DNA from: Thermodesulfobacteriota bacterium
Lineage (GTDB): Bacteria; Desulfobacterota; Desulfobacteria; Desulfobacterales; JAUWMJ01
NCBI GenBank assembly: GCA_034189135.1
Contig: JAXHVO010000059.1
Coordinates: 7,336 to 71,335, forward strand
Length of the DNA stretch: 64,000 nucleotides
Direction: 5' to 3'
The translations under genes and the position numbers were made by a program. Positions 26,442 through 47,034 of this stretch are shown here, one piece after another (position 1 is the first letter of the stretch; every line of letters starts with the position of its first letter). The notes beneath the pieces are model-generated. The model had not been told where the DNA came from, did not search any database, and saw only the letters and a list, made by a program, of their open reading frames with translations.

Positions 26442-29186
26442 ATGACCAAAAAAGATCAAAAGCTTATTAAAATTTTAAACCAAATTGGAGAGGATATAGA
26501 TTCGTTCAGCATTGGTGACACCGATGAGTGGAAACACATTCATGGTGAACTGGAAAAGGTTAAAAAAGACCTGCCCAAAAACAAATCCAAGGTAACTGAA
26601 ATTTTAAACCTTTGTCTTAGCGGGTTAGAGCGAATATGTCAAAAAACCACCGATGATTTCCTTTCTTTGGTATCCGCCATATCAGAAGCATTGATTGGTT
26701 CAGAAAAGTATATAAAGGATAAAAAAGCAGGAAAACCCCTGTTAAGTGAATCGGGGAAAGCACTGAAAAAAATTTTAGACGAGCAGTCTAAAAATGACAG
26801 GGGGTCTTCTCCCCAAACAGAAAACAAAGAAAAAAGTGAAAAATTATCTCTTGATGAAGCGGCGGTTGCGCTAATCCAGCTTGAAGCAGGAGATGACAGA
26901 GGACTAAATGATTTAAGGGAGTGTTTGGAAAAAATGGCCGCTGATGAATCGTATCCTGAATCTTCCCGCCAATACATTACCGATGCTGCCGAGAAAATAA
27001 CCATGATCCTGAAAGAAGGGTCAACTGATGCTGATGCAGCGATGGAAGAAGTGGGCGACCTCTTGGAAGAAGCAATGAATGTAGCCGGAGATTACGGCAG
27101 GGAAGGAAATGAGAAATCGGTTCCGGCAGGAAGTGCTGTTTCGGCCAAAAAACAGGGGAATGATCAGGGCGATGCGCCCCAAATCAAAGATGAGAAACAT
27201 AGGGCTGAAAGGACGGAGACGGAAAAGCCGGACAGCGAAACTGAACATAAGGAACACATTGAACGAGTTGGAAAAACTGCTGGGCAGAAGGATGATCCGC
27301 AACCTGCAAAAGAACCTGAGCAAGATTACATGCCTGAAGATGCTGACGTTGAATTGATCGCCGAATTTATTGCTGAAGGAAATGATTTATTTGAAAGCGC
27401 TGAAGAGGCACTGCTAACACTTGAAACAGATCCGGACGATTTGGAATCTGTCGATAAAATTTTTCGGGCTTTTCACACCGTAAAGGGAACTTCAGCATTT
27501 TTAGAACTCACCCTGCTTGCCGAAATGGGTCACCATGCTGAGTCACTTTTAAGCCGTGTGCGTGACGGAGAAATACGTTACAGCGGAGGATATGCCGATT
27601 TATCACTTCGCGCACTGGATATGTTAAAGGGAATACTACGGTCTGTTAAGGATGCCATTGGCGGAAAGCCCCTTTTAAAACCGGCTGGTTATGACGAATT
27701 AATGAAGGTTCTCAAAGACCCTGAAGCAGCCGGTGTTTCCGCTGATGAAGATGTGATCGATGAACCCAGGGTGGGAGATATTCTGGTTGCCCAGGGAAAA
27801 ATTGAGAGAGAAGAGCTGGAAAAAATTGCCGACACCTGTAAAGATGAAAAGATTGGTACCCAGCTAATAAAATCAAAGGCAGCCACTGCTGCTGATGTGG
27901 GCCAGGCACTTAGAACTCAGAAAAAAATGAAAAGCGGAGGCCGGGTGGTTGAATCATCGGTACGGGTTGGCACCAGAAGGTTGGACCGTCTGATCGATAT
28001 GGTGGGAGAGCTTGTAATTGCGCATTCCATGGTAGCTCAGGACGAGCTGATTGTGGACGGCAGTAATATTGAACTCCAAAAAAAAGTCTCTCTAACTAGC
28101 AAGATTGTTCGAGAGCTTCAGGATATAAGCATGTCTATGAGGATGGTTCCCCTTAAATCGACTTTTAATAAAATGGCCCGGCTTGTGCGTGATATATCAC
28201 GAAAGATCGGTAAAAAGGTGAACTTTGTGACCGAAGGTGAAGATACGGAAATCGATCGGAACCTGGTGGATGTCATCAATGATCCGCTGGTACATATGGT
28301 AAGAAATGCAGTGGATCATGGAATTGAACCGCCGGAAGCACGGAAAAAGAATGGTAAAGATGAAACCGGTGTGGTTAAACTGACCGCTTATCATTCAGCC
28401 GGAAGTGTGGTGGTGGAAATATCAGACGACGGTAAGGGTCTTGATCGGAAGGCCCTCATTGCCAAAGCAAAAGAAAAAGGTTTTATCAGCGACTCCCCCG
28501 ATTTTAATGATAATACCTTAACCGACAAAGAAGTGTTTAATATGATTTTTGAGCCAGGATTTTCCACTGCTGAGGCCGTAACCGATGTATCAGGACGCGG
28601 TGTGGGTATGGATGTGGTCAGAAAAAATATAGAATCCTTGCGGGGGCAGGCTGAAATAAAATCTGAACTGGGAAAGGGAAGCGTTTTCAGAATGAGCCTT
28701 CCTCTGACTCTTGCAATTATCGACGGGATGGTTGTTCGGGTGGGAAATGAAACCTATGTCATCCCAACAGGTTCTATCATAAGGTCTATTAAACCAGACT
28801 CCAAAAATATCACCAATGTATTTGAAAAAGGCGAAATGTTATCACTTCAAGGGGAGCTTATCCCTTTGATAAACATGTCCGCTTTATACGACATTGCAAG
28901 TACACCCAAAGACGAAGACATGTCGCTGGTTGTTATTGTTGAAGATGAAGAAAAACAGGCAGGACTTTTAATAGATGAGCTTATCGGCCGGCAGCAGGTA
29001 GTTATAAAAACACTGGGTGGCACCATGAAAAGTACACCTGGGATTTCGGGCGGTGCGATTATGCCCAGCGGAAGGGTTGGACTGATTATTGATGTGGCAG
29101 GACTTTTAAAGTTTTCTAATGAGGTGCAGGAAAAAGAGGAAGGGGATGGACCAGGGGCGGCAGGAACGCAGGTGCTTGCGGCATGA
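26442..29186 (+). CDS. cheA: Chemotaxis histidine kinase CheA (atypical N-terminus and P2 region)
   Basis: Hpt motif FRAFHTVKGTSAFLEL. N-box NAVDHGIE, G1 DDGKGLD, G2 GRGVGMDVV and a C-terminal CheW-like domain are present. About 300 extra residues precede Hpt. Confidence 0.95.
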   Translation: MTKKDQKLIKILNQIGEDIDSFSIGDTDEWKHIHGELEKVKKDLPKNKSKVTEILNLCLSGLERICQKTTDDFLSLVSAISEALIGSEKYIKDKKAGKPLLSESGKALKKILDEQSKNDRGSSPQTENKEKSEKLSLDEAAVALIQLEAGDDRGLNDLRECLEKMAADESYPESSRQYITDAAEKITMILKEGSTDADAAMEEVGDLLEEAMNVAGDYGREGNEKSVPAGSAVSAKKQGNDQGDAPQIKDEKHRAERTETEKPDSETEHKEHIERVGKTAGQKDDPQPAKEPEQDYMPEDADVELIAEFIAEGNDLFESAEEALLTLETDPDDLESVDKIFRAFHTVKGTSAFLELTLLAEMGHHAESLLSRVRDGEIRYSGGYADLSLRALDMLKGILRSVKDAIGGKPLLKPAGYDELMKVLKDPEAAGVSADEDVIDEPRVGDILVAQGKIEREELEKIADTCKDEKIGTQLIKSKAATAADVGQALRTQKKMKSGGRVVESSVRVGTRRLDRLIDMVGELVIAHSMVAQDELIVDGSNIELQKKVSLTSKIVRELQDISMSMRMVPLKSTFNKMARLVRDISRKIGKKVNFVTEGEDTEIDRNLVDVINDPLVHMVRNAVDHGIEPPEARKKNGKDETGVVKLTAYHSAGSVVVEISDDGKGLDRKALIAKAKEKGFISDSPDFNDNTLTDKEVFNMIFEPGFSTAEAVTDVSGRGVGMDVVRKNIESLRGQAEIKSELGKGSVFRMSLPLTLAIIDGMVVRVGNETYVIPTGSIIRSIKPDSKNITNVFEKGEMLSLQGELIPLINMSALYDIASTPKDEDMSLVVIVEDEEKQAGLLIDELIGRQQVVIKTLGGTMKSTPGISGGAIMPSGRVGLIIDVAGLLKFSNEVQEKEEGDGPGAAGTQVLAA

Positions 29187-30714: not shown

Positions 30715-31569
30715 ATGGATTCAAATATTATTGCAAAGGTAGAGGCGTTCCCCAGCCTGCCCGGTGCAACCACAAAACTGATTTCCCTGCTTGATGATTC
30801 CAATGCTGCCGTGGTCGAGATAGAAGAAATCTTACGTATGGATCCAGGTCTTACCGCCAATGTCTTAAAGCTGTCAAACTCTGCTTACTTCGGGTTTCCA
30901 TCTAAAATAGGGTCTGTACACAAGGCAATTGTCCTGCTGGGTGTAAAAAGATTAATGCAAATTGTGATGACATCCTGTGTAAACTCCCTGATGAGTAAAT
31001 TTGTTCCGGGTTACGACTTGCCGCCGGGTGAAATGTGGCGTCATTCAATTGCAGTATCTGTTGCCGCAGAAGGCCTGATTGCTGAGCTGAATACTTCTGA
31101 AGCTGATGAAATATTTACTGCCGCACTTCTTCATGACGTGGGCAAGCTTGTTATGGGGGAGCTCATGAAGGACGATATTAATAAAATTGACAAAATAGTA
31201 TCCCAGGATGTTTCATTTGAAGAAGCAGAGCATATCGTCTTTGGAATCGACCATGCCCAAATAGGTGCAAAAATACTTGAAAACTGGGGATTGCCCGCAG
31301 AAATTGTAAGTGCTGTAAGATGGCACCACGATCCTGATGCTGCCGATGAATCAAGCACGTTAATCGATATCGTTCATGTGGCAAATGTTTTATGTTTAAT
31401 GATCGGTATCGGTGTGGGCAGAGAGGGCCTCCAGTACAGACCGTCACCGGTGGTGACCCAAAGGCTGGGGATAAAGCCGGCGAACCTTGAAAAGGTTGCC
31501 AGTTATACACTGGATTGGGTCAGTGATTTGACGGATGTTTATGAAATAAACCAGGAAGTTGATGCTTGA
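30715..31569 (+). CDS. HDOD domain signalling protein (copy 1)
   Basis: FPSLPGATTKLISLLDDSN...ILRMDPGLTANVLKLSNSAYFG and LLHDVGKLVM are HDOD hallmarks. Confidence 0.88.
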   Translation: MDSNIIAKVEAFPSLPGATTKLISLLDDSNAAVVEIEEILRMDPGLTANVLKLSNSAYFGFPSKIGSVHKAIVLLGVKRLMQIVMTSCVNSLMSKFVPGYDLPPGEMWRHSIAVSVAAEGLIAELNTSEADEIFTAALLHDVGKLVMGELMKDDINKIDKIVSQDVSFEEAEHIVFGIDHAQIGAKILENWGLPAEIVSAVRWHHDPDAADESSTLIDIVHVANVLCLMIGIGVGREGLQYRPSPVVTQRLGIKPANLEKVASYTLDWVSDLTDVYEINQEVDA

Positions 31570-31582
31570 GGAGAGGGTAATA

Positions 31583-31972
31583 ATGGCTCTAAATATACTG
31601 ATTGTCGATGACAGCGCTGTGATGAGAAAGATGATTATTAAAACCATGGGTATGTGCGGCATTCCGATCGGAGAGATAAAGCAGGCTGGCAACGGCAGGG
31701 AAGGACTGGAAGAGTTGACAAAAAGCTGGATTGATATCGTTATCCTGGACATCAATATGCCGGTAATGAACGGCGAGGAAATGATGGATGCCATGCAGCA
31801 ACGTGCTGAAACAAGCGACATTCCGGTTGTGGTCATCTCCACAGAAGGAAGCAGCACCCGTATTGATCGTCTAAAGGAAAAAGGCGCGAGGTTTATTCAA
31901 AAACCTTTTACACCGGAAATAATCAGGGATACCATATCCGAAGTCACAGGAGTAGGAGAAGGTGATGAATGA
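31583..31972 (+). CDS. cheY: Chemotaxis response regulator CheY
   Basis: Single REC domain with ILIVDDS, ILDINMPVMNG and FIQKPF. Start chosen at ATG 31583 behind RBS GAGAGGG. Confidence 0.9.
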   Translation: MALNILIVDDSAVMRKMIIKTMGMCGIPIGEIKQAGNGREGLEELTKSWIDIVILDINMPVMNGEEMMDAMQQRAETSDIPVVVISTEGSSTRIDRLKEKGARFIQKPFTPEIIRDTISEVTGVGEGDE

Positions 31973-32459
31973 GAAAATAGACGATATAATTTTAAAAACA
32001 GCTGCAGAGACTTTAGAAAAACTGGCGTTTATGTTTGCATCTTTGTATGACCCTGAGGAAGCAATTGAAAAAGATCCTGACACAGGGGTGTGCGTTTCAT
32101 TTACCGGTCCTTTTTCAGGGACACTCGGGATGAAAGTATCAGGGGAGGTTCTGGGCGAAATTGCGGTAAACATGCTCGGCGCTGATGACGAAGATGACAT
32201 TACACTGGATGATAAAAATGATGCCCTGAAAGAAACCATCAATGTGATTTGTGGAAATATTTTGCCGGCAATTGGCGGGAAGCAGGCGGTTTTCAACATC
32301 GGTGTGCCGAAGATTATTCCTGCAGGTGAAAATATAACGGGCAAAGACGGGGAAGACCCTGTGTCAGATGTAAAGCTTTCCCTCGATGAGGGAAGATGCG
32401 ATCTCGTATTATTCGTAAAGGGTAATATCCCTGAAGCGGGTGAATCGTTCAGCGGATGA
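31965..32459 (+). CDS. cheX: CheX/CheC-like CheY-P phosphatase
   Basis: About 164 aa overlapping the cheY stop. The N-terminus ILKTAAETLEKLAFMFAS and the stretch ALKETINVICGNI are typical of the CheX/CheC fold family. Confidence 0.65.
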   Translation: MNEKIDDIILKTAAETLEKLAFMFASLYDPEEAIEKDPDTGVCVSFTGPFSGTLGMKVSGEVLGEIAVNMLGADDEDDITLDDKNDALKETINVICGNILPAIGGKQAVFNIGVPKIIPAGENITGKDGEDPVSDVKLSLDEGRCDLVLFVKGNIPEAGESFSG

Positions 32460-36209: not shown

Positions 36210-36671
36210 ATGAAAAGATTAATCAACCCGATTTTTCTTATAATTTTTTTCTCCCTTTTTGCTGAAGCGGGACTGTGTATCAGCGGAGAAGATATTATAA
36301 AACTGAAAAAAGCCGGGGTCAGCGATACAACCGTGCAATTAATGGTTAAAGAAAAGACCATAGAGACATGTGCGTTTACTGTGGAAGAAATAGTGAATCT
36401 AAAAAAGGCGAAAGTCAGCGATGGAACGATCCAGGTGCTGATAACAGAAGGCTCGTTTACAAAAAATGCCGAAACCATTGTTTACGGCAAAGATATCAGA
36501 CCCATTAAATTTGCCACAGTGAAAGATATTATCAAGCTTAAAAATTCCGGGCTCAGTGAAAAAACAATACAGGCCATTATTTCCGTCACCGGAAAGACAA
36601 GGGACGATTCTCAGCGTGAAAAGGCCTGGGAAATGTTGAAGAGCATGGAAATCCATATTGAAAAAAAGTGA
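36210..36671 (+). CDS. Secreted protein with three tandem repeats of about 25 aa
   Basis: Signal peptide MKRLINPIFLIIFFSLFAEAG. The repeats are DIIKLKKAGVSDTTVQLMV, EIVNLKKAKVSDGTIQVLI and DIIKLKNSGLSEKTIQAII. The stop overlaps the next start (GTGA). Confidence 0.7.
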   Translation: MKRLINPIFLIIFFSLFAEAGLCISGEDIIKLKKAGVSDTTVQLMVKEKTIETCAFTVEEIVNLKKAKVSDGTIQVLITEGSFTKNAETIVYGKDIRPIKFATVKDIIKLKNSGLSEKTIQAIISVTGKTRDDSQREKAWEMLKSMEIHIEKK

Positions 36672-37180
36672 TCCGTAATTTTAAGAACAAGGAAACTGAA
36701 AATTACTACCTTGAACCGGGATATATATTCCTGGCTGAAAAACCCACCTCTATATCCACAGTGCTTGGATCATGCGTTTCCGTGTGCCTCTATGACCGCA
36801 AAAAAAAAATCGGCGGGATGAATCATTTTCAAATTCCTTTTGTAACTGATTCAACCCAGGCAACTGCAAGATTCGGGAATGTGGCTACCATTACCCTAAT
36901 CCGCATGATGATCCATGGCGGTTCCAAAATAAAAAATCTGGAAGCCCAGGTATTGGGCGGGGCATACAACAGTAAGGTGTCAGCCAAAGACATCGGTTTT
37001 GAGAATATCATGGCGGCAAAAAAAATTCTTGCCCGGGAGCGGATACGTGTCACCTCAGAAGATATTCGGGGAGGCAAAGGAAGAAAGATCGTTTTTAATA
37101 CATCAACAAACGATGTTGCCGTATTTAAAGTCGATAAACTCAGAGAGTCGGACTGGTATCCCTATAAGAGCAATAGATAG
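36668..37180 (+). CDS. cheD: CheD paralog (copy 2)
   Basis: VLGSCVSVCLYDRKKKIGGMNHFQIP matches the CheD catalytic pattern. GTG start is translationally coupled to the upstream ORF. Confidence 0.82.
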   Translation: MIRNFKNKETENYYLEPGYIFLAEKPTSISTVLGSCVSVCLYDRKKKIGGMNHFQIPFVTDSTQATARFGNVATITLIRMMIHGGSKIKNLEAQVLGGAYNSKVSAKDIGFENIMAAKKILARERIRVTSEDIRGGKGRKIVFNTSTNDVAVFKVDKLRESDWYPYKSNR

Positions 37181-40581: not shown

Positions 40582-41682
40582 ATGGGATTGGCGTTAATAA
40601 AGAAAAAGAGTGGTAATTCTGCCGGAGAAGACCTGTCGGAAATTCTGAAAAGCAGCGATGAAAAGCGGCACTTTTATCTACTTATAATAAGGGCGCTGCT
40701 GGTATTTATTAAGGATTTTTCACTGGATTTAAAGGAAATAGACTCTGAAGAGTTCAAAAGGAAGATAGATGGTTTAGCCGAAAAACTCTTATCTGATGAG
40801 AGGACCAAAAAGCTGCAATCGGGTTTTGAAAAAAACAAAAAAAACATAGTTACCTATATTAAAAAGCAGAAAGAATATTTGAAAGATCGTGAGGACGAGT
40901 TTAAAGAAATTATTGATCTGCTGACAAAAGCGATGGCAGTGGCTGATCACGACAACCAGGTTTATAATGAAAAGATTTATCAGCAGAGCGAGAAGCTGGA
41001 AAAACTAACTTTGCTTGACGATATAAGGAAAATAAAGAATGAGCTGATAATACAAGTTGAAAATATAAGAAGGACTGTAAGGAAAAAGGATTTACATGAT
41101 AGCGAGAAGCTGGAAAAATTGTCCCAAAAGGTAAATTCTCTTAATGTTGAGCTTGAAAAGGCAAAGGAAGAATCTGTAAAAGACGGCCTGACCGGTATTT
41201 ATAACCGGAGAGCCTTTGACATATATATCAGGAAGCTGGTTGAGCGAAACACTGTTACAAAGGCACCTTTTTCATTACTGCTTTTAGATATAGACGATTT
41301 TAAGAAAATTAATGATAATTTCGGTCACCAGACCGGAGATCGTTTGCTGGTAGCCACAGCCCGCAAGTGCAAAGAATTTATAAGAAGTGATGACTTTTTG
41401 GCTCGTTACGGTGGAGAAGAGTTTGTTGTTGTTCTGCCTGGGGCTTCACTGAGAAATGCCGCAAAAAAGGGTAAAATTATTTGTAAAGAGATAGCAAAAG
41501 CCAGATATGCTTTAGAGGGGAGCAAAGAAGATACCATCATTTCAATTACTCTTAGCATTGGCGCCAGTATTCACAAAAAAGGTGATACAGTGGAAACTGT
41601 GATAGAGCGTGCAGATAAAGCCCTTTATGCTGCAAAGCAATCTGGGAAAAATCGGATCATATCTGAAAAAGAAATTAAATAA
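40582..41682 (+). CDS. Diguanylate cyclase (coiled-coil N-terminus plus GGDEF domain)
   Basis: DGLTGIYNRRAF, LLLLDIDDFKKINDNFGH and the active site RYGGEEF. Confidence 0.9.
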   Translation: MGLALIKKKSGNSAGEDLSEILKSSDEKRHFYLLIIRALLVFIKDFSLDLKEIDSEEFKRKIDGLAEKLLSDERTKKLQSGFEKNKKNIVTYIKKQKEYLKDREDEFKEIIDLLTKAMAVADHDNQVYNEKIYQQSEKLEKLTLLDDIRKIKNELIIQVENIRRTVRKKDLHDSEKLEKLSQKVNSLNVELEKAKEESVKDGLTGIYNRRAFDIYIRKLVERNTVTKAPFSLLLLDIDDFKKINDNFGHQTGDRLLVATARKCKEFIRSDDFLARYGGEEFVVVLPGASLRNAAKKGKIICKEIAKARYALEGSKEDTIISITLSIGASIHKKGDTVETVIERADKALYAAKQSGKNRIISEKEIK

Positions 41683-41810: not shown

Positions 41811-43069
41811 ATGAAAAAGTCATCAATGACCATTTTTGTAATCTGTTTGGTTTTAGGATTATCTGCACAGGGTTATGCGATTAACGGACCACTGATAGAC
41901 GGTCAGGGTACCAGGATTATGGGTATGGGAGCAACCAATATTGCGGTTACCGATGACAGTAATACCATAGCCAACAACCCCGGAGCCATTTTTGCTCATG
42001 ATGAGGGTGTTATCGATTTGGATATAGGTCTTGTTGCCCCTCATCCGGATTTTAAAAACGCTCTTAATGATGAAGACGGACAAAACCTTCTCTGTCCCCT
42101 TCTTGCTGTCAGTTTCTTATCCACACCTTTAAATGAAAAATTTAAACTGGGCTTCGGCCTTTTTCCGATGGGTGGTTTGGCATCAGAATACCGGCTTACT
42201 AATGCTAATTATGGGGATCAGGTTACGAGTCAAACTTATCTTTTTTGAAAATGTTGCCTGCAGTCGGATACAAGGTTAATGAAAATTTTTCTGTGGGACT
42301 TTCATTTGGCATCGGATACCAGAGCATGAGGTTGAAAATGCCTTATCAGGTTCATTCGGGCGCTTTGGCAGGTAATGTTATGGTTGCCGACATGCGCATG
42401 GAGGGTTCTGATTATTGCAGCAATTTAGGTATTCTTTATAAGGTTAACGATGCCGTAAAAATTGGTTTCGTATACAAGTCAGAGACAAAGATAAATATGT
42501 CAGGAGATGCAAACGTGGATGCATCTGCACTGGGAGCCGGTACGGCAAAGTATGATGTGGAAGCAACCTATAAATGGCCGCAATCAGCCGGTGTTGGTAT
42601 ATCCTATCTGGCAACCCCCAAATTACTTGTTGCGGCGGATGTTGAATGGATAAACTGGAAAAAAGCGATGCAAAGCCTTGAGTTCGAATTTTCCCAAGGT
42701 AATAGCGGATTGCTGCCTCCCGCACTCAACGATGAATTGCCCCTTGACTGGGACGATCAATATGTTTTCAGACTTGGCGTCGAATACGAAGCGACGGAAA
42801 ACCTGGATCTTCGTTGTGGGGTTACATACGGCAAATCACCTATTCCTGATAACACGGTAATGTCTATATTATGCACAATTATCGAATGGTCGGCAACTAT
42901 CGGGCTGGGTTATAATGTCACTGAAGATGTTTCTTTTAATGCAGCCTATCTCCATTCCTTTGACCATACGCAGGATTCGGATGTAAGCTTAATCGGTAAT
43001 GAATATGATGGAAGCTCAACCGGTGTGTCAATAGATGCAATCTATATGGGATTGACTGTAAATTTTTAG
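41811..43069 (+). pseudogene. FadL/OmpP1/TodX-family outer-membrane channel, split by a frameshift in a T6 run
   Basis: ORF 41811-42248 has a signal peptide and GQGTRIMGMGATNIAVTDDSNTIANNPGAI. ORF 42245-43069 has beta-strand repeats and ends with a terminal Phe (LTVNF). One extra T at 42241-42246 would fuse them into about 420 aa. Confidence 0.7.
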
Positions 43070-44428: not shown

Positions 44429-45283
44429 ATGGAAACTAACAAAATATTTAATAGACTGGATTCAATCAAAGACATTCCCACTTTGCCCACCATCGTTTTT
44501 GAGCTCAATGAACTGCTCCAGGACCCGAATACACCCATCACCGATATAAGCGATATTATAGAAAAAGATCAGGCCATGTCCCTGAGAGTATTAAAACTGG
44601 TAAATTCCGCATTCTATGGGATTCAAAAAGAAGTAAATGATATAGGAAATGCGATCGTGCTGCTTGGTTTTAATACGGTACGAAATGCCATTGTTTCCCT
44701 GGGCGTAATAAAATCGTTTTCAGGGAAAAAGTCTCTGGCAGGATTCGATATCAGTGACTTCTGGAAACATTCACTTGCGGTTGCCGTTGTCAGTAAAAGC
44801 CTTGCAGAAAAGACAAAAATAGCATCACCGGACAGTTGTTTTGTGGGTGGGCTATTGCACGACATAGGAAAGGTTATACTGGCACAATATTTTCAGGATC
44901 TGTTTGAAAAAGTGTGGAATACTGCCAAAAAAGAAAGCATTTCCTTTTATGAAGCTGAAAAGAAAGAGATTTCCATAGACCACGGAAGAATAGGCGCTCA
45001 CCTTGCAGCAAACTGGGAGCTTCACCAAAGCTTTATTGATGTGATTCGCTGGCACCATGATGTGCGAAATGATTCGGAAAGCAAAAAAATGATCTTGATC
45101 ATATATTTAGCGGACATTATCGTCAACAGTTATGATGCTGATTCTGAGGGCAATATTGATTTATCTGTGATGCACCCTGCGGCTTTAAAATTTCTTAACA
45201 AGCAACTGGGAGACGTTGACAGCTGGTTTGATGAAATTAAAGACGATATTCAATCCGCATACCAGTTCTTTTTGGAAGATTAA
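44429..45283 (+). CDS. HDOD domain signalling protein (copy 2)
   Basis: IPTLPTIVFELNELLQDPN, AMSLRVLKLVNSAFYG and LLHDIGKVIL. Confidence 0.88.
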   Translation: METNKIFNRLDSIKDIPTLPTIVFELNELLQDPNTPITDISDIIEKDQAMSLRVLKLVNSAFYGIQKEVNDIGNAIVLLGFNTVRNAIVSLGVIKSFSGKKSLAGFDISDFWKHSLAVAVVSKSLAEKTKIASPDSCFVGGLLHDIGKVILAQYFQDLFEKVWNTAKKESISFYEAEKKEISIDHGRIGAHLAANWELHQSFIDVIRWHHDVRNDSESKKMILIIYLADIIVNSYDADSEGNIDLSVMHPAALKFLNKQLGDVDSWFDEIKDDIQSAYQFFLED

Positions 45284-46314: not shown

Positions 46315-47034
46315 TCACAAATTCAATCGAATTCTTTTTCTTAATAACTGCTGCTGGTATTTGTATATAAATTTTGTCAAGGATTTTTGTTCATTTTTAT
46401 CTATACTAACGAACTGTAGGGCACAGCAGTTTTTTGGTTTAAGTGAACCTTTGACCGCTCTTACGATGGTTGCTTTTTTAATTTTTGATTTAAAAAATTT
46501 TCCTTCCAGGGGAAATAACAGTTCGATATCTTCAAAGCAGTCTCCGACTTTTAAAAAATGTTTTTCTTCAATTTCTGGCATATGACCGACAAGCGCAATA
46601 AGGGTGCCGCCAAGACTGACATCAATCACATTCATTTTAAGAAGTTTTGAATTTATTCTGACATGAAGTTTGGTTCCGGCAGGAACCTCCAGCCTGAAAT
46701 CTTTTCTTCTTTGTTTCCGATTAATGAAATCAGGAAAATTGACCTTTATTTCATCATGGTGGATTTCTCCCCCGGACGTTTTAAAGGAATAGCTTAAATT
46801 ATCTTTTCCGGTAAATTTAAAATTCATTTTTAGGTTGTTTAAACCGCCGGAAGCAGGTTGGAAATCCTTGGGAGAGTCGATCATAAAGGTTCGATTTTTC
46901 TTATTGGGATATACATTGGTAATAATGGTAAGACATTCATAATTCTTGCCGGTCAGCCGCATTTTGATAAGTGTTTTATCTTTTTTTATCGTTGTAAGAA
47001 TATCGGCAATGTGTTGGCCTTCAATTTTTTCCAT
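46315..47034 (-). CDS. PilZ domain c-di-GMP-binding protein (YcgR-like architecture)
   Basis: PilZ motifs RRKDFR (RxxxR) and DVSLGG (D/NxSxxG), with an N-terminal beta-rich domain. Confidence 0.8.
   Translation of the reverse strand: MEKIEGQHIADILTTIKKDKTLIKMRLTGKNYECLTIITNVYPNKKNRTFMIDSPKDFQPASGGLNNLKMNFKFTGKDNLSYSFKTSGGEIHHDEIKVNFPDFINRKQRRKDFRLEVPAGTKLHVRINSKLLKMNVIDVSLGGTLIALVGHMPEIEEKHFLKVGDCFEDIELLFPLEGKFFKSKIKKATIVRAVKGSLKPKNCCALQFVSIDKNEQKSLTKFIYKYQQQLLRKRIRLNL

Follow-up and report, generated by a model that had tools for sequence, protein, structure and literature searches.

A module related to the c-di-GMP-binding MshEN N-subdomain at the place of P2 in a chemotaxis kinase CheA of Desulfobacterales

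The window analysed here is a stretch of 64,000 nucleotides from a Thermodesulfobacteriota bacterium of the order Desulfobacterales (assembly GCA_034189135.1, contig JAXHVO010000059.1, positions 7,336 to 71,335). It contains a flagellar and chemotaxis cluster, in which the genes follow each other in the order FlgI, FlgM, FlgN, CheA, CheR, CheD, HDOD, CheY, CheX, CheB, FlgK and FlgL. The subject of this article is its cheA gene, an open reading frame of 914 codons (26442..29186, + strand). The identity of the product as the chemotaxis kinase CheA is established by its P1, P3, P4 and P5 domains, recognised by the Pfam families Hpt, H-kinase_dim, HATPase_c and CheW, and by its place inside the che gene cluster. 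Between P1 and P3 it carries a tandem of two 24-residue motifs that resemble the N-subdomain of MshEN (MshEN_N), a domain known to bind cyclic dimeric GMP (c-di-GMP).

The protein is built from an N-terminal extension, P1, the MshEN_N-like module, P3, P4 and P5, and lacks P2. The extension comprises residues 1-295 (26442..27326), is partly acidic and of low complexity, and matches no Pfam family. P1 is a five-helix Hpt domain of residues 303-425 (27348..27716; Pfam match at residues 304-385) with the phosphorylatable histidine in FHTVKG. The module starts with motif I, residues 443-466, RVGDILVAQGKIEREELEKIADTC (27768..27839), continues with the three-residue spacer KDE (27840..27848) and ends with motif II, residues 470-493, KIGTQLIKSKAATAADVGQALRTQ (27849..27920). 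The registers of both motifs are taken from the alignment with MshEN_N described below and from their conservation in 81 sequences. A short flexible linker, residues 494-504 (27921..27953), leads to the P3 dimerisation domain, residues 505-566 (27954..28139), which is followed by the P4 kinase domain, residues 614-756, and the CheW-like P5 domain, residues 762-890 (together 28281..29111). All these segments are on the + strand. An extended N-terminus is also seen in the relatives: In 64 complete CheA sequences the phospho-histidine is found at about residue 290 (median), as against about residue 48 in E. coli CheA, and tblastn detects the extension in 26 out of 44 long related loci.

The tandem motif was first described in a sequence-only reading of the window, which quoted a peptide for positions 27768-27920. 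Translation of the + strand yields the identical peptide, RVGDILVAQGKIEREELEKIADTCKDEKIGTQLIKSKAATAADVGQALRTQ, i.e., CheA residues 443-493. The residue-by-residue matches listed for both halves are all correct, and so is the spacer of three residues, where MshE of Vibrio cholerae has five. The MshEN authors themselves applied a relaxed pattern in their searches, [RKPN]hGxxhhxx[GAS]hhxxxxhxxxhxx[QNKRYWST] for each half, with h = LIVAFYWM (Wang et al. 2016, PMC5013675). With a spacer of three, the tandem starting at residue 443 fits this pattern at 19 of 22 positions and is the unique best site in a six-frame scan of the 64-kb window; the runner-up reaches 17, a score found mostly in hydrophobic nonsense frames. 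None of 300 shuffled versions of CheA scored 19 (maxima: mean 14.9, standard deviation 0.8, highest 18). The tandem motif in CheA is confirmed to be more than chance.

The relationship to MshEN_N was then examined at the level of profiles. An alignment of 32 CheA inserts (A1) was compared by hhalign with one of 16 MshEN_N domains from proteins other than CheA (A2; from the supplement of Wang et al. 2016, and PilF). The two match with a probability of 98 %, an E-value of 3e-13 and a score of 60 over 54 columns, in the very register that the sequence-only reading had proposed and with a two-residue gap in the spacer. Two hundred column shuffles scored 9.4 ± 2.3 with a maximum of 17.4, and the reversed alignment 10.1. 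Run against a library of 1.84 billion representatives, the A1 profile found 1627 proteins at E ≤ 1e-3. The annotated ones include T2SSE ATPases with PF05157 (P0139, P0204) and other PF05157 proteins (P0171, P0173). In P0139, P0171 and P0204 the hidden Markov model (HMM) of the CheA insert covers some 55 residues directly N-terminal of the PF05157 match, which is the site of the c-di-GMP-binding N-subdomain. The same HMM scores residues 8-50 of V. cholerae MshE (22 bits) and residues 7-59 of TM0837 (27.5 bits), and it gives no score on the non-binders XpsE and Pseudomonas aeruginosa PilB. A phmmer search of all PDB sequences with CheA residues 417-513 has as its top hit residues 303-374 of Thermus thermophilus PilF, the c-di-GMP-binding domain GSPII-C (E 0.0046).

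The predicted fold points in the same direction. AlphaFold2 (AF2), supplied with A1, models the 59-residue segment as four helices with a predicted local distance difference test score (pLDDT) of 87. The best Foldseek match in the PDB is 5HTL_A, V. cholerae MshE with bound c-di-GMP, with a template modelling score of 0.83 and a root-mean-square deviation of 1.0 Å over 55 columns; hits 1 to 11 are all MshEN-type N-domains of MshE, PilF or PilB. With a query of only 59 residues the Foldseek E-values stay weak (0.19), and AF2 may have learned the fold from 5HTL. We therefore take the fold as corroboration. The models show a four-helix bundle of two helix-turn-helix repeats (pLDDT 87-96), as expected of this domain. 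Profile-profile comparison, library-wide profile hits and predicted fold taken together, it is well supported that CheA residues 443-493 are a genuine homologue of the MshEN N-subdomain. What had been called an MshEN/T2SSE_N-like motif thus stands as far as the N-subdomain is concerned; a C-subdomain, for which a PF05157 match would speak, is not seen.

The position of the module is where P2 normally resides. A P2 would comprise some 70-90 residues in an alpha/beta fold, located between P1 and P3, and an ordinary P2 fold in a structural model had been named as an outcome that would speak against an MshEN-like module. The AF2 model of residues 296-575, built with 48 homologues (mean pLDDT 90), shows helices and no beta strand. 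It displays the five P1 helices (8-34, 39-58, 62-79, 88-111 and 122-130 in the numbering of the model, pLDDT >90), a linker, four short helices of the module (CheA residues 444-450, 456-465, 471-477 and 483-497), a disordered stretch at residues 500-508 (pLDDT <50) and the helical hairpin of P3. No P2 family of Pfam matches CheA at E ≤ 10. The distance from the phospho-histidine to the module amounts to 98 residues (median of 77 relatives, range 94-122) and is filled by P1 and a short linker. The all-helical model, the missing P2 match and this distance agree that the module sits at the usual place of P2 and that P2 itself is absent, as the sequence-only reading had it.

A rival reading would be that an ordinary helical linker between P1 and P3 resembles MshEN_N by chance or composition, or that the region is a diverged P2. 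In favour of such a reading one may quote that PF05157 does not match and that the tandem fits the strict motif at no more than 12 of 22 positions. The first of these arguments falls with the unsuitability of PF05157 as a test for the N-subdomain (see below). The observed scores are far above those of the shuffled controls, the predicted fold superimposes on 5HTL within 1.0 Å, a P2 would be an alpha/beta domain while the model has no beta strand, and in some relatives the motif is repeated once more, at a length of exactly 24 residues. On the strength of profile, shuffles, fold and all-helical model we reject a chance or compositional match or a diverged P2 as extremely improbable.

The extra copy deserves a remark of its own. 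Some relatives (loci L005, L009, L026, L033, L035 and L068, and protein P0002) have a third 24-residue motif in front of the module, e.g., SPRIGEILVSQGKIDEADIDEAL-SPRIGDVLVAQG... in P0002, and in the loci with this copy the phospho-histidine is 121-122 instead of 98 residues away from the module. Such additions mark the 24-residue unit as a building block. The strongest library matches of the A1 profile are of yet another kind: They combine Hpt with six to nine tandem MshEN_N-like stretches (P0121, P0122, P0125 and P0128, all metagenomic representatives). Some of these proteins also carry TSP3 and dockerin repeats, and mis-joined gene calls are possible there. The architecture Hpt-(MshEN_N)n was not found in the literature covered by our search.

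The role of PF05157 calls for clarification. A scan with this family had been suggested as the check for the module; it was run and returned no match at E ≤ 10, neither for the whole CheA nor for the fragment of residues 417-513. The test proved invalid and does not speak against the homology. Three observations lead to this judgement. The truncated, proven binders V. cholerae MshE 1-79, which is defined by crystallography, and Thermotoga maritima TM0837 1-76, used as positive controls, likewise give no match; the Pfam model begins within the second half of motif II, as the supplementary material of Wang et al. 2016 (PMC5013675) shows; and in true MshE-type ATPases the segment recognised by the CheA-insert profile is immediately followed by the PF05157 match. 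The missing match shows only that CheA carries MshEN_N without the MshEN_C subdomain; the room between module and P3 is 11 residues. On P0139, P0171, P0173 and P0204 it can be seen that PF05157, named "MshEN domain" and 90 positions long, models the C-subdomain and not the 53-residue N-subdomain that binds c-di-GMP. Stand-alone MshEN_N modules yield in Pfam only weak, sub-threshold matches to DUF4388 and FumaraseC_C. PF05157 is thus unusable to find or to exclude the c-di-GMP-binding subdomain, and in consequence stand-alone MshEN_N modules are under-annotated.

The idea that the chemotaxis kinase itself may contain a receptor for c-di-GMP is not new. Wang et al. 2016 (Nat Commun 7:12481, PMC5013675) list CheA among the MshEN_N fusions; their Supplementary Tables 4 and 6 contain the CheA of Aeromonas veronii (EKB11881), with the order HPT-P2-MshEN_N-P3. 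Its residues 261-390 bind c-di-GMP with a dissociation constant (KD) of 2.6 µM (Supplementary Table 6), and residues 260-342 are aligned in Supplementary Fig. 3c. Our search of the literature outside subscription journals found no other experimental report of c-di-GMP binding to a CheA, nor any paper on an effect of such binding on chemotaxis-kinase activity or behaviour. A homologue search with the A. veronii fragment returned one short Aeromonas partial. What lies in the window is an MshEN_N-CheA fusion of the kind described in 2016, but one that lacks P2 and has a partly degenerate motif.

The two kinases have in common a two-motif MshEN_N without MshEN_C inside CheA. Both modules end at the same position, about 12-13 residues ahead of the "VRV" with which P3 starts, and both have a basic residue at position 22 of motif II, K in A. 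veronii and R491 here. They differ in that the A. veronii enzyme keeps the CheY-binding P2 upstream of the module, has near-canonical motifs (L21 and Q24 in both) and a longer spacer, and does not have the N-terminal extension of some 295 residues. The CheA of the window has no P2, a three-residue spacer and a relaxed tail of motif I (A463, C466).

Other couplings of c-di-GMP to chemotaxis are known. The PilZ-containing chemoreceptors (Cbp1, PMC6454048) and the PlzC-CheX system of V. cholerae (PMC12799141) are examples; they act, however, via PilZ domains on receptors or a phosphatase, not via a site inside CheA.

Whether the module still binds its ligand has to be judged from the contact residues. 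V. cholerae MshE (5HTL) has the same four-helix fold, and its R-h-G heads and h-x3-h-x2-Q tails are in register with those of CheA, though its MshEN also comprises the C-subdomain covered by PF05157 and belongs to a T2SSE ATPase. Residues R9 and R38 of the V. cholerae protein correspond to R443 and K470 of CheA, L10 and L39 to V444 and I471, G11 and G40 to G445 and G472, G18 and G47 to G452 and K479, L25 and L54 to L459 and V486, L29 and L58 to A463 and L490, and Q32 and Q61 to C466 and Q493; the spacer shrinks from five residues to three. In motif I the head R-V-G-D is canonical, and in the tail L459 is kept, while Leu is replaced by A463 and Gln by C466. Motif II has K in place of Arg at position 1, retains G472, has lost the turn glycine to K479, and its tail of V486, L490 and Q493 is canonical. 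In V. cholerae MshE all 12 key residues are canonical; the CheA keeps 10 of 12 if conservative replacements are included, the exceptions being Ala at position 21 and Cys at position 24 of motif I, and the count ranges from 9 to 12 in the clade.

Conservation was counted over 81 sequences, i.e., 80 species-level relatives and the query. The head of motif I is nearly untouched (R in 81/81, V/I/L in 79/81, G in 81/81, D in 79/81), and the same holds for motif II at G3 (81/81), V17 (77/81), L/I21 (81/81) and Q24 (79/81). The glycines at position 3 of both motifs, G445 and G472, are invariant. So is a clade-specific arginine at position 22 of motif II (R491, 81/81). Elsewhere the clade is permissive: Position 21 of motif I is Ala in 41, Leu in 15 and Val in 15 of the sequences, position 24 of the same motif varies between H, K, Q, Y, E and D and is Cys in the query, position 1 of motif II is Pro in 44 and Lys in 22, and position 10 is K, Q or G. 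The spacer has three residues in 80 of 81 sequences, so that the five residues of V. cholerae MshE are not a feature of this clade.

The consequences of such replacements can be estimated from V. cholerae MshEN (VcMshEN) variants. L29A weakened c-di-GMP binding 28-fold, L29V 4-fold, Q32A 9-fold and L10A 36-fold (Wang et al. 2016, PMC5013675). The largest effects were seen at the two glycines; G40I bound 72-fold less tightly and binding of G11L was undetectable (Supplementary Table 1 of the same paper, PMC5013675). The non-binder XpsE has lost both glycines.

A short spacer need not be an obstacle. Bd2402 of Bdellovibrio bacteriovorus binds c-di-GMP with a KD of 0.04 µM despite a three-residue spacer, Lys at position 24 of motif I and Asn at position 10 of motif II (Wang et al. 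2016, PMC5013675), and its alignment in Supplementary Fig. 3c has the same two-residue gap. A spacer of five is, in consequence, not a strict requirement. Like the CheA studied here, Bd2402 has MshEN_N alone on a signalling domain, with a residue other than Gln at position 24 of motif I and other than Gly at position 10 of motif II; it differs in keeping Leu at position 21 of motif I and in being fused to a receiver domain instead of a kinase. Nor is Arg at position 1 sacrosanct. In PilF this position is occupied by Pro in GSPII-C and by Lys and Leu in GSPII-B, and both domains bind (Neissner et al. 2024, PMC11731258; 2025, PMC12002112); GSPII-B thus demonstrates that an Arg there is dispensable. 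GSPII-C, the best sequence match in the PDB, binds c-di-GMP at about 0.3-0.5 µM (PMC11731258, PMC12002112) and shares with most members of the clade a GK-x-x-RE in motif I and a Pro at position 1 of motif II. The three PilF domains GSPII-A, -B and -C reside in an ATPase and have C-subdomains, whereas the present module resides in CheA.

GSPII-A is the disturbing case. It has a near-perfect motif I and yet does not bind, which was attributed to an N-capped, elongated helix 1 and to contacts between subdomains (PMC11731258, PMC12002112). This structural look-alike is the main reason why the activity of the CheA module cannot be read from its sequence. A block of the same type is unlikely here, as far as the model goes, since a Pro precedes R443 in 65 of the 81 sequences, R443 lies outside helix 1 in the AF2 model, both in keeping with an open site, and there is no C-subdomain.

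We favour the view that residues 443-493 form a true MshEN_N module, inserted into a CheA without P2 and probably still binding one c-di-GMP; we give it an even chance. As in 5HTL, the R-h-G heads would hold the ligand on one side and the hydrophobic tails on the other. R443 and K470 are predicted to stack on the two guanines, the backbone amides after G445 and G472 would read their Hoogsteen edges, V444/V486/L490 and I471/L459, possibly with I462 and A463, would form the hydrophobic clusters, and Q493 would hydrogen-bond to ribose and phosphate. Only about 17 residues connect the module to P1, and about 11 to the P3 dimer. With tethers this short, ordering of the module by the ligand would change the reach of P1 and might thus alter its delivery to the ATP site of P4 or to CheY. 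The cellular level of c-di-GMP could in this way bias the output of the flagellar chemotaxis kinase.

A retained c-di-GMP site is favoured by R1, G3 and D4 of motif I and G3, V17, L/I21 and Q24 of motif II, which are kept in 77-81 of 81 sequences, by the binding of c-di-GMP to the A. veronii CheA fragment, and by the presence of an intact GGDEF and a PilZ protein at the locus. There is, however, a lot to be held against it. Ala at position 21 and Cys at position 24 of motif I coincide with the sites of the 28-fold and 9-fold losses in VcMshEN, and should the two effects add up, the expected KD would greatly exceed the c-di-GMP concentrations of a living cell. The variability of these two positions in the clade leaves one half-site without the canonical constraint, and the turn glycine of motif II is K or Q in most members. 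GSPII-A teaches that a near-consensus sequence is by itself an unreliable guide (PMC11731258, PMC12002112). The genes of the GGDEF and PilZ proteins are 11-17 kb away from cheA, beyond the flanks of 10 kb that were compared in the relatives. The step from binding to control of the kinase is pure inference, and in the journals covered by our search we found no test of kinase control by c-di-GMP on a CheA of this type. What the analysis shows is a homologous module of predicted four-helix fold, with most of its contact residues conserved, at the place of a missing P2; that this particular module binds the ligand and influences the kinase would follow from analogy. Binding at a useful affinity is a toss-up; if it occurs, the affinity is probably lower than that of the Aeromonas CheA module (2.6 µM) and of the canonical domains.

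The relaxed positions can also be read in a different way. The module could be a degenerate MshEN_N that has lost nucleotide binding and serves as a rigid four-helix landing pad or spacer, which docks a partner or sets the geometry between P1 and P3. CheY (31559-31972), the neighbouring HDOD protein, CheX (31962-32459) and the PilZ protein would be candidate partners. The poor conservation of Leu and Gln in the tail of motif I, the loss of the turn glycine in motif II and the weakening of VcMshEN by L29A and by Q32A all fit this idea, and non-binding MshEN-like domains are documented in XpsE and PilF GSPII-A, for which the authors propose the role of a protein "landing pad". The N-terminal domain of Xanthomonas citri PilB, encountered here as the fold hit 7LKM, is reported to bind a PilZ protein. 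R491, E460 and D485 are invariant, clade-specific residues without conservation in the MshEN motif, and suggest an added, CheA-specific surface. The gene of the HDOD protein (30715..31569, + strand, Pfam HDOD), three genes downstream of cheA and between cheD and cheY, occupies this place after cheD in 37 of the 44 long loci of relatives. For HDOD a biochemical role has still to be established, c-di-GMP binding being no more than a suggestion so far. What a mere landing pad does not explain is the (near-)invariance, over several phyla, of both position-3 glycines, R443 and Q493, residues whose known role is ligand contact and which are lost in known non-binders. Moreover, the closest characterised CheA module, that of A. 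veronii, does bind c-di-GMP. We regard the landing pad as a real possibility, though one that we would not bet on.

The unequal state of the half-sites invites still another interpretation. The head of motif I and the tail of motif II are canonical, the head of motif II and the tail of motif I relaxed. One half-site would then be guanine-canonical and the other not, and the module might read a different or asymmetric nucleotide, e.g., 3'3'-cyclic GMP-AMP (cGAMP) or pGpG. Signalling by cGAMP is common in the former Deltaproteobacteria, and the N-subdomain of VcMshEN binds cGAMP, though weakly, with a KD of 3.3e-4 M. Against this stands that the literature covered by our search contains no MshEN-type domain that prefers a ligand other than c-di-GMP, and that the cyclase encoded nearby has an ordinary GGEEF motif. 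We consider an altered ligand preference improbable.

A bolder version of the favoured c-di-GMP site would be that MshEN_N has replaced P2 also functionally in the P2-less clade. In this case the module would be a hinge, at which c-di-GMP, or another cyclic dinucleotide recognised by the asymmetric site, would directly gate the access of P1 to P4 or CheY, with the HDOD neighbour as a possible partner. CheA itself, and not an accessory PilZ protein, would then integrate the signal for the transition between motile and sessile life. We deem this rather unlikely.

The fusion is not a curiosity of one genome. Relatives were collected by scanning one genome per GTDB species with a single-protein query, and 80 loci were checked for the module; the total of 529 relatives rests in part on P3 patterns and does not tell how many CheAs bear the insert. 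The module is found in at least 80 species-level loci, with 55-88 % identity over insert and P3. The nearest relative of the CheA in the window, at 88 % identity, belongs to a metagenome-assembled genome (MAG) of Desulfobacteraceae. Most of the loci come from Desulfobacterales MAGs, others from Acidobacteriota, Tectomicrobia, the Olavius symbionts Delta 1 and Delta 4, and Desulfatirhabdium; the cultured Desulfonema magnum 4be13 is also among them. Most of the long related loci retain the order FlgI-FlgM-FlgN-CheA-CheR-CheD-HDOD-CheY-CheX-CheB-FlgK. This large, syntenic, P2-less clade, mostly of Desulfobacterales, is what the present analysis adds to the 2016 description. As the sole domain between P1 and P3, the module makes a simpler system than Aeromonas for the study of a direct gating of CheA by c-di-GMP, and its half-site, partly degenerate as it is, offers a natural experiment on the share of the 24-residue motif that binding needs.

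Downstream of flgL the order continues with an open reading frame of 153 codons, a CheD-like gene, cheW, a gene for a methyl-accepting chemotaxis protein, a GGDEF gene, a split FadL-like gene, a second methyl-accepting chemotaxis protein and a second HDOD gene; a PilZ gene is located on the opposite strand. The sequence-only reading had listed a GGDEF cyclase, a PilZ protein and two HDOD proteins at this locus, and Pfam and motifs bear it out. The GGDEF diguanylate cyclase (40582..41682, + strand) has a GGEEF active site and RSDD as the I-site (RxxD). The PilZ-domain protein of 239 residues (46315..47034, - strand) exhibits RxxxR and DxSxxG. The cyclase and the PilZ protein are mentioned as context only. 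The second HDOD protein is encoded at 44429-45283 and recognised by Pfam.

The 153-residue product (36210-36671, + strand) has no trusted Pfam match; in 25 of 44 relatives its frame is likewise found behind flgK/flgL. In the window it is followed by a second CheD-like gene (36668-37180, + strand). The FadL/TodX-family outer-membrane transporter is encoded by two overlapping reading frames on the + strand (41811-42248 and 42245-43069), which match PF03349 at positions 10-124 and 142-418, respectively. The split reflects a frameshift, i.e., either a pseudogene or a sequencing error.

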